A stretch of 43,274 nt of DNA from an uncultured archaeon (GCA_964400475.1 CAYNTH010000005.1:11064-54337), one strand, 5' to 3'. Counted from the first letter of the stretch, positions 15,053-17,005 are shown. The notes: a model not told the origin generated them from the letters alone. Translations and numbers: made by a program.

Positions 15053-15126
15053 GCCTCAGTAGCTTAGTTTGGTGGAGCATCACATTGGTAATGTGGAGGC
15101 CGCGAGTTCAAGTCTCGCCTGAGGCT
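15053..15126 (+). tRNA. tRNA-Thr(GGT), no intron, CCA not encoded
   Basis: Acceptor stem GCCTCAG/CTGAGGC; anticodon arm TCACA-TTGGTAA-TGTGG; T-arm GCGAG-TTCAAGT-CTCGC. Confidence 0.95.
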
Positions 15127-16152: not shown

Positions 16153-16623
16153 TCAGTTCAATACATACACCGAATAATTCAAAACAGCCGCGAAAGTGAC
16201 CCAAATAATGTAAGGCACCATCAGATAAGCAGCGACTTCATCCAACTCGTAGAATTTATAGATTGTGTATGATATCGCCACCCATAATACGATTATCTCG
16301 ATTAGCGCGTAAAGTGGATTTCGTAACCCGAAGAACAATATCGACCAAAATGTATTCAAAACCAACTGAACAGCATAAACCCCTATAGCATCCCTGCTAT
16401 CTGAGGTGTCCTTCTCCCATATTATATAGGAAGCCACACCCATCATCGTATAAAGCACCACCCACACAGGACCGAACAGCCATCCGGGAGGCGTAAAACC
16501 CGGTCTCACTAATTGTGAATACCAAGTACCTATTGTATTGTAGGTGAAAATAGAACCGATAACGCCGGCCGTCTGCGCTATTATTATTGCTTTAACAAAA
16601 CCTATTAGCCGCTCTCTCTTCAT
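16153..16623 (-). CDS. tspO: TspO/MBR tryptophan-rich sensory protein
   Basis: WY..L.RP.FTPPGWLFGPVW..LY, QL.LN..WS.LFFG and PY..W..FA..LN. Confidence 0.93.
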   Translation of the reverse strand: MKRERLIGFVKAIIIAQTAGVIGSIFTYNTIGTWYSQLVRPGFTPPGWLFGPVWVVLYTMMGVASYIIWEKDTSDSRDAIGVYAVQLVLNTFWSILFFGLRNPLYALIEIIVLWVAISYTIYKFYELDEVAAYLMVPYIIWVTFAAVLNYSVYVLN

Positions 16624-16642
16624 ATGATCACAGTATAATTAG

Positions 16643-16712
16643 CCCCCATCAGGCCGCCCGATCAGTTAAAATCATTTGGTTATCATTAACTCTGACCGTC
16701 ATCATATGGGTT
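16643..16712 (-). ncRNA. Box C/D 2'-O-methylation guide sRNA
   Basis: Minus strand reads CCCA-U-AUGAUGA (C)-CGGUCAGAGUUA-AUGA (D')-UAACCAA-AUGAUUU (C')-UAACUGAUCGGGCGGC-CUGA (D)-UGGG. It has a terminal stem, a TTAAATA box about 25 nt upstream, and guides complementary to conserved rRNA. Confidence 0.75.
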
Positions 16713-16765
16713 AGTTAATAATTCGCATGGGTAATATTTAATTCTTAACAGGAGTGTAATTAATT

Positions 16766-17005
16766 ATGGCAGACGACGATAATGACATAAAATTGGGCGA
16801 GTTCAGGCTTAGGAAAGACGCTGTTTTGTTGATAAAGAAGACCACATGGAAGGGGGATGACAGGATAGATTTCCGTGTCTGGAAAGATTCTCCGAAATAC
16901 AAGGGACCGACAAAACAAGGATTCGTACTACCGATGGACAAGATAGACGATTTCATAAAGATGGTAGAGAATATGAAGGAAACGCTTGAAGAAGAATCGG
17001 ATTAA
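16766..17005 (+). CDS. PC4/YdbC-like ssDNA-binding protein
   Basis: WKG..RIDFRVW and GPTKQGF.LP motifs. Confidence 0.8.
   Translation: MADDDNDIKLGEFRLRKDAVLLIKKTTWKGDDRIDFRVWKDSPKYKGPTKQGFVLPMDKIDDFIKMVENMKETLEEESD

Follow-up and report, generated by a model that had tools for sequence, protein, structure and literature searches.

The box C/D motif described here lies on the minus strand, from 16712 to 16643, of a 43,274-nucleotide stretch of DNA from an uncultured archaeon (GCA_964400475.1, CAYNTH010000005.1:11064-54337), which we refer to as the window. The motif occupies the gap between two genes. On its 3' side, outside the sRNA and on the same strand, is tspO (16153-16623, minus strand; Pfam TspO_MBR, E 2.9e-51). 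On its 5' side is a divergent open reading frame of 79 amino acids (16766-17005, plus strand) with a weak PC4-like match that falls below the cut-off (E 0.0066). An AT-rich, near-palindromic, TATA-like stretch at 16734-16765 is common to the sRNA and the divergent reading frame and could serve both directions. The TATA-like element on the sRNA strand, TTAAATAT (16741-16734, minus strand), is a putative promoter element about 27 nt upstream of the closing stem, close to the spacing of about 25 nt given in the initial annotation. The homolog from a second genome of the same genus (G001) has ATTTAAT in the same alignment columns. Elsewhere in the window, a tRNA gene at 15053-15126 (plus strand; 65.3 bits) is the sole Rfam match above threshold.

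All of the sequence elements listed in the initial annotation were found at the locus, on the minus strand. A 4-bp closing stem is formed by CCCA (16710-16707) and UGGG (16648-16645). The C box, AUGAUGA (16705-16699), is perfect, and its UGAUGA core is identical in all five homologs that we describe below, counting this copy. It is followed directly by the 12-nt D' guide CGGUCAGAGUUA (16698-16687), the D' box AUGA (16686-16683), a D'-C' loop that reads UAACCAA (16682-16676) and differs between homologs, and the C' box AUGAUUU (16675-16669). The 16-nt D guide UAACUGAUCGGGCGGC (16668-16653), whose target is uncertain, is different in every homolog. It ends at a D box, CUGA (16652-16649), that is perfect and invariant. 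The closing stem is likewise kept in the five homologs, with a single C-to-U change in G033 that gives a U-G pair. Thus, the terminal boxes and stem as well as the internal boxes are those of an archaeal box C/D sRNA. In contigs from four DNA runs of one study, X1 and X2 span 16643-16712 with no variant inside; the variants closest to the sRNA are at 16641 and 16614.

The internal boxes had been called degenerate and do depart from consensus, and both AUGA and the UGAUUU of the C' box are invariant in five of five homologs. AUGA and AUGAUUU retain the UGA and UGAU cores required for the tandem G-A pairs of the second kink-loop. In C/D kink-turn geometry, the sixth C-box nucleotide pairs with the first of the D box. 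Here A1 of the D' box and U6 of the C' box could presumably replace the usual C-G pair with a Watson-Crick pair, and this restored pairing fits the invariance of the two boxes in the family.

No Rfam family reached its gathering score at the sRNA (16500-16900, E up to 10). The scores below threshold were 25.2 bits for SNORD18 (threshold 41), 16.5 for snoU43 (threshold 45) and 14.3 for sR5 (threshold 40).

The genome (649 kb in 15 contigs, about 88% complete) encodes the proteins of a C/D ribonucleoprotein. The initial annotation had noted that a lack of fibrillarin or Nop5 would speak against an sRNA; both are encoded, at 280.7 and 227.1 bits and in adjoining genes, together with L7Ae (104.6 bits), and all three score above the Pfam cut-offs. 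Genes for Cbf5 and Nop10 are also present. There is one 16S gene and one 23S gene, both on contig C3. These rRNA genes, at 57728-60850 and 70356-71614, lie about 9.5 kb apart and are therefore unlinked. The 16S gene matched the Rfam model in four pieces beginning at model position 296, and its 5' part may be diverged, interrupted or unscored. ARAGORN in default mode reported only 25 tRNAs.

With custom scanners, which could miss sRNAs that lack a stem or have degenerate boxes and so are not exhaustive, a canonical double-guide C/D candidate in intergenic DNA was found nowhere in the 649-kb genome but at the present locus. The two other hits fell within long open reading frames, and the reversed-genome control gave 0 matches. 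Other C/D candidates (C1:36915, C9:9911 and others) were rejected, being located inside long open reading frames or lacking the full architecture.

The D' guide had been proposed to target the helix 69 loop of 23S rRNA, with the modified nucleotide at about U1915. We find that the organism's own 23S rRNA contains GGUAACUCUGACCGUC at helix 69, exactly as predicted. The D' guide pairs with it over E. coli positions 1911-1922, with 12 of 12 pairs being Watson-Crick, and the nucleotide opposite the fifth guide position (N+5) is U1915, which is U1997 of the organism's own 23S (E. coli numbering throughout is from alignment to MG1655 rrsH and rrlH). A 12-bp Watson-Crick run was reached by none of 400 shuffled D' guides. 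By RNAduplex, helix 69 is the best D'-guide site in each of the four genomes compared, at -18.6 to -20.8 kcal/mol, while the best energies of shuffled D' guides average about -14 kcal/mol (standard deviation about 1.5). The D' guide thus has the complementarity expected of a rRNA antisense guide, that is at least 8-9 bp ending at the box with N+5 inside the duplex; the D guide does not show it in canonical form.

Among the homologs, the sole substitution within the D' guide is C or U opposite the invariant G1918, so that either a G-C or a G-U pair is kept. As the four genomes have one and the same helix 69 sequence, no two-sided compensatory covariation can be demonstrated. U1915 is normally a pseudouridine site. 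Because Cbf5 and Nop10 are also encoded, U1915 may end up as 2'-O-methyluridine or as methylated pseudouridine; alternatively, the two modifications may compete.

Four further distinct copies of the sRNA were identified: one in the same genus (G001), two in other genomes (G033 and G081) and one at a metagenome locus (L139). All five copies keep the C box, the D' guide, AUGA, UGAUUU, CUGA and UGGG. The present copy has a D' spacer of 12 nt and a D spacer of 16 nt, against 13 nt and 10-13 nt, respectively, in the other copies. Across all five, the D spacer varies both in sequence and in length.

By blastn against 61 relatives, homologs were found only in G001 and G033; most short matches were to the 23S gene or to coding sequence. 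A covariance model built from three copies recovered full-length homologs in four of 70 family genomes (this genome, G000, together with G001, G033 and G081), with E values from 5e-13 to 3e-19. Six weak covariance matches in other genomes of the phylum and a second weak match in this genome have no C/D boxes and were discarded. In a phylum sample of 151 genomes, the model found no homolog in the other 150. The pattern GTYAGAGTTANTGA gave 15 matches in 14 of the 118 genomes of the order (7 in the backwards control), and the 11 matches outside G000, G001, G033 and G081 have no C box, so that no further homologs were found among these 118. Exact-pattern scans of metagenome and genome collections yielded, among the 239 loci listed, three with a C box. 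Two of these have the same sequence as the G001 copy; the third, L139, is a new copy. The sRNA family is thus narrowly distributed in the genomes sampled.

Taken together, these results argue with good confidence that the locus is a genuine and conserved gene for a box C/D sRNA, whose predicted role is to guide methylation of 23S U1915. Judged from the sequence, it would be a stand-alone minus-strand gene for an archaeal sRNA of about 65-70 nt, and its transcription, assembly into a ribonucleoprotein and methylation activity are proposed by analogy with the class. Guidance to U1915 would be the conserved and selected function of the sRNA, and the D guide turns over quickly in the family.

The second guide was analyzed against the organism's own rRNAs. 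The best complement of the D guide is in the organism's own 23S rRNA, at E. coli 1071-1084 in the GTPase-associated centre, adjoining the A1067 loop. The pairing consists of GGCGGC/GCCGCC (6 bp), a 2-nt bulge in the guide and then UAACUGAU/AUCAGUUA (8 bp), for a total of 14 bp, and N+5 falls on C1075 (C1189 of the organism's own 23S). No shuffled D guide out of 3000 reached this total. Among 400 random genome segments matched in length, the only ones to reach 14 bp were the five that contain the gene's own antisense strand; none of the remaining 395, which lack the sRNA gene, did so. It is the only complement of the D guide that is better than chance. The site also varies between genomes, reading GCCGCC in the organism's own 23S, GCAGCC in G081 and GUCGCC in G001, so the D guide fits the variant of its own genome. 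The D guide of L139 shares ACUGAUCG with the present one, and its best ungapped site on the present organism's 23S is at the same place (9.5/11), a match that is not significant alone since 178 of 1000 shuffles reach it.

At -21.0 kcal/mol, the duplex energy of the 23S site falls inside the range of shuffled D guides (mean -19.6, standard deviation 2.2). A 12-nt spacer is the usual archaeal design, and both a bulge beside N+5 and a spacer of 16 nt are unusual. The bulge two positions from N+5 and the long spacer make methylation at C1075 doubtful. Pairing at 1071-1084 may lead to methylation, may only aid rRNA folding or may do nothing.

Two other searches with the D guide gave little. Among the 25 ARAGORN tRNAs, the only complements were G-U-rich runs, the best of 10 and on tRNA-Ala. 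Elsewhere in the genome, no complement with up to three mismatches was found except the gene's own antisense strand.

An alternative to a working second guide is that the sRNA is effectively a single-guide RNA, in which only the D' guide functions and the D spacer is an orphan, either drifting or shaped by the tspO promoter or leader. This is possible, though we consider it clearly the less probable view. It would account for a D spacer that varies from 10 to 16 nt among the five homologs while the rest is conserved, and for the fact that neither the 23S nor the 16S duplex (below) beats shuffled guides in energy. The position of the gene is also compatible with it. The tspO start is 19 nt past the 3' limit of the sRNA at 16643 with no T-run between, from which we infer that a tspO promoter must be located within the sRNA gene or upstream of it; this suggests that tspO would be either co-transcribed with the sRNA or driven by a promoter embedded in it. 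Orphans make up 28% of guides in Pyrobaculum and are frequent in sRNAs overlapping a gene or promoter, according to the sections of the catalogue of Lui et al. (PMC6009581) considered here. Against an orphan spacer stands the split 14-bp complement at 23S 1071-1084, with its 0 of 3000 shuffles and its match to the organism's own site variant.

The D guides of G001 and G033 also bear on this question, as they converge on 23S at about 2571-2580. The shared best site suggests that D guides in the family are not pure noise, though either match taken alone is no better than chance, as 651 and 585 of 1000 shuffles, respectively, do as well. The two guides come from loci L029 (G001) and L028 (G033) in different genera. 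The 23S site that they share reads GACGUUAGCU and is 2769-2778 of the present organism's own 23S; it lies close to the peptidyl transferase region, and N+5 is shifted by one between the two guides.

The initial annotation had assigned the D guide to 16S helix 44, with one bulged U and with C1402 as the modified position, and had read the sRNA as a dual guide for both sides of ribosomal bridge B2a, with D' directing Um1915 in 23S helix 69 and D directing Cm1402. The pairing and the position are indeed present in the organism's own 16S rRNA, which reads CACACACCGCCCGUCAAGCC. Guide positions 2-8, counted from the D box, pair with 1399-1405 (CCGCCCG), and after the bulged U a further 3 bp form with 1406-1408. 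N+5 is C1402, flanked by three pairs on each side, a better local geometry than that of the 23S alternative, and the duplex is the second best for the D guide at -18.5 kcal/mol. What did not hold is its significance. A 7-bp ungapped run over position 5 was reached by 239 of 400 shuffled D guides, and the gapped total of 10 (7 bp, bulge and 3 bp) by 357 of 3000. The run is shorter than the 8-bp minimum complementarity stated in the text of the Pyrobaculum catalogue that we draw on (Lui et al., PMC6009581). Additionally, the extra A after G1405 that had been considered is absent, so the organism's own 16S has no base that would remove the bulge.

The helix 44 match is also absent from the D guides of G001, G033, G081 and L139, all of which differ from the present one, and the helix 44 sequence itself is identical in G001 and G081. 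Precedent for the modification exists: C1402 is ribose-methylated in bacteria and yeast in the comparison given by Grosjean et al. (PMC2584109, in the part relevant here), and Cm1402 has been measured in Nanoarchaeum equitans, where no guide was found, with Iho sR11 proposed for it in Ignicoccus (PMC5389701, in the passages on this site). The Rfam snoU43 model, below threshold, has a guide end (GGGCGG and CUGA) that aligns with and resembles the end of the present D guide (GGGCGG plus one base) and can pair with CCGCCC.

Among eukaryotic snoRNAs, snR70 and SNORD43 guide the C1402-equivalent cytidine. Compared with these and with Iho sR11, as the latter is described in the source's section on it, the present guide offers only 7 contiguous bp and a bulge, at chance level and unconserved. 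We therefore regard the bridge B2a reading as unlikely: the 16S pairing is at chance, missing from four homologs and outcompeted by the 14-bp 23S complement. For the D guide, pairing at 23S 1071-1084 (real as pairing, uncertain as to methylation) ranks first, an orphan spacer second and 16S C1402 third.

It had further been proposed that the two guides pair with each other in an autoinhibited fold. They do form 7 bp with each other in the minimum-free-energy structure. The energy of this structure is ordinary (z-score -1.07; matched or bettered by 32 of 200 shuffles), as it is in two other homologs (z-scores -0.46 and -0.06), and autoinhibition was rejected on this ground.

The neighbourhood of tspO raises another explanation, offered in the initial annotation as a fallback, that the element is only a cis-acting, L7Ae-binding kink-turn in the tspO 5' leader that controls tspO translation or stability. 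The same strand, the 19-nt distance to the start codon without a T-run and the presence of tspO after the sRNA in the same-genus genome G001 are all compatible with this. However, tspO lies 3' of the sRNA in only two of the five distinct copies (G000 and G001), and in G033, G081 and L139 the sRNA precedes unrelated genes or a convergent gene. The PC4-like reading frame lies 5' of the sRNA in G000, G001 and G081, with other neighbours in G033 and L139. In all, five copies occur in three different gene contexts, and the differing neighbours indicate an autonomous gene rather than a tspO leader element. T-rich runs directly follow the stem in G001, G081 and L139, and in G001 the gap between sRNA and tspO is about 44 nt and contains a run of five T. 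A leader element would also not need a perfect 12-nt antisense to helix 69 conserved across genera. We consider this explanation very improbable. The lack of any Rfam family at threshold might allow that short motifs have come together by chance in AT-rich intergenic DNA, but this is scarcely credible given the empty reversed-genome control, the 0 of 400 shuffles at 12 bp and the full-length homologs in three other genomes (E 1e-13 to 3e-19).

If the locus is a U1915 guide gene, as we favour, its mechanism would follow that of the class. L7Ae would be expected to bind at two places, the kink-turn of the terminal C/D boxes and the kink-loop of the internal C'/D' boxes, with two copies of fibrillarin recruited by a dimer of Nop5. 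The 12-nt D' guide would base-pair with the helix 69 loop in nascent 23S rRNA, and fibrillarin would then methylate the 2'-OH of U1915, the nucleotide that faces the guide's fifth position counted upstream from the D' box.

The sRNA closely resembles the archaeal dual-guide C/D sRNAs catalogued by Dennis et al. (2015; PMC4644070) and Lui et al. (2018; PMC6009581), in so far as the main descriptions in those papers go. The C, D', C', D order is the same, the stem is short, the RNA is about 65-70 nt long and the D' spacer measures 12 nt. The sRNA also has a rRNA antisense guide ending at the box and directed at the helix 68/69/71 hotspot, one conserved and one labile guide, and a position near a protein gene whose expression signals it possibly overlaps. 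It differs from the catalogued sRNAs, as described in those same sections, in its D spacer of 16 nt rather than about 12 and in having AUGA/AUGAUUU in place of CUGA/UGAUGA as D'/C' boxes. Helices 68, 69 and 71 are described as methylation hotspots for archaeal C/D sRNAs in the relevant section of PMC4644070, where the contact between helix 69 and helix 44 is discussed. U1915 is not named as a methylation site in the sections of PMC4644070 and PMC6009581 covered here, and the supplementary site tables of these papers may hold predictions for U1915 or C1075. Likewise, the covered sections of PMC4644070 yielded no methylation in helices 42-44 of archaeal 23S.

Two published helix 69 guides invite direct comparison. 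In Haloferax and Haloarcula (Gm1934/Gm1950; Grosjean et al. 2008, PMC2584109, in the part dealing with this site), few guided methylations exist and one helix 69 guide is kept; fibrillarin and an sRNA are credited there with Haloarcula Gm1950, which is position 1909 of E. coli in helix 69. The present genome is similar in that custom scanners yielded a single canonical C/D candidate, again one aimed at helix 69. The haloarchaeal guide differs in acting at stem position 1909 rather than at loop position 1915, and in those organisms 1915 and 1917 are Cbf5 pseudouridines according to the same part of PMC2584109.

The second is Neq sR20 of Nanoarchaeum equitans, which guides 16S Gm1530 and 23S Cm1920 in helix 69 (Seistrup et al. 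2016, PMC5389701, in the passages describing this sRNA). It is a C/D sRNA of a DPANN archaeon and, like the present sRNA from a putatively DPANN-type lineage, has one guide at 23S helix 69, a likeness that concerns the targets as those passages describe them. The authors point out there that its two targets meet across the subunit interface, the very idea behind the bridge B2a reading of the initial annotation. Its Cm1920 is confirmed by mass spectrometry and RiboMeth-seq in the same account, whereas the present sRNA is known from sequence alone. The targets differ, being C1920 and the helix 45 region for Neq sR20 and U1915, with helix 44 in the initial annotation's model, for the present sRNA. 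Thus, a cross-subunit dual guide with a helix 69 target is already published for N. equitans; a Cm1402 guide would be new but fails the tests applied here. The present sRNA does not join Neq sR20 in that type, as its 23S guide qualifies and its 16S pairing is at chance level and unconserved.

Beyond Nanoarchaeum, we found no literature on C/D sRNAs in small-genome DPANN-type lineages. The split 6 + 8 bp pairing of the D guide resembles the core and accessory helices of the 'extra base-pairing' described for eukaryotic snoRNAs in the relevant part of van Nues et al. (2011; PMC3116282), and the portions of the literature covered here contained no description of extra base-pairing for archaeal sRNAs.

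The known picture of C/D sRNA function is unchanged by this sRNA, which adds a previously unannotated and well-supported C/D guide to a putatively DPANN-type lineage. Were guidance of Cm1402 true, one 70-nt RNA would methylate both partners of bridge B2a, U1915 in helix 69 and C1402 in helix 44, and would be a Cm1402 guide of the kind sought but not found in Nanoarchaeum. In a bolder variant, the GC-rich guide end may read both 16S 1399-1405 and 23S 1071-1076, making a single assembly chaperone for helix 69, the decoding centre and the GTPase centre. For the favoured U1915 guide, the broader meaning lies in what is kept and what is replaced. As the only canonical C/D candidate found by our non-exhaustive custom scanners, the sRNA would be part of a minimal guide set, which suggests, as does the similar haloarchaeal case, that helix 69 is a target kept in a genome with very few guides. 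The family also illustrates guide turnover, with the D' guide frozen across genera and the D guide rewritten in each lineage, here by a 4-5-nt insertion that creates the split complement to the GTPase-associated centre.
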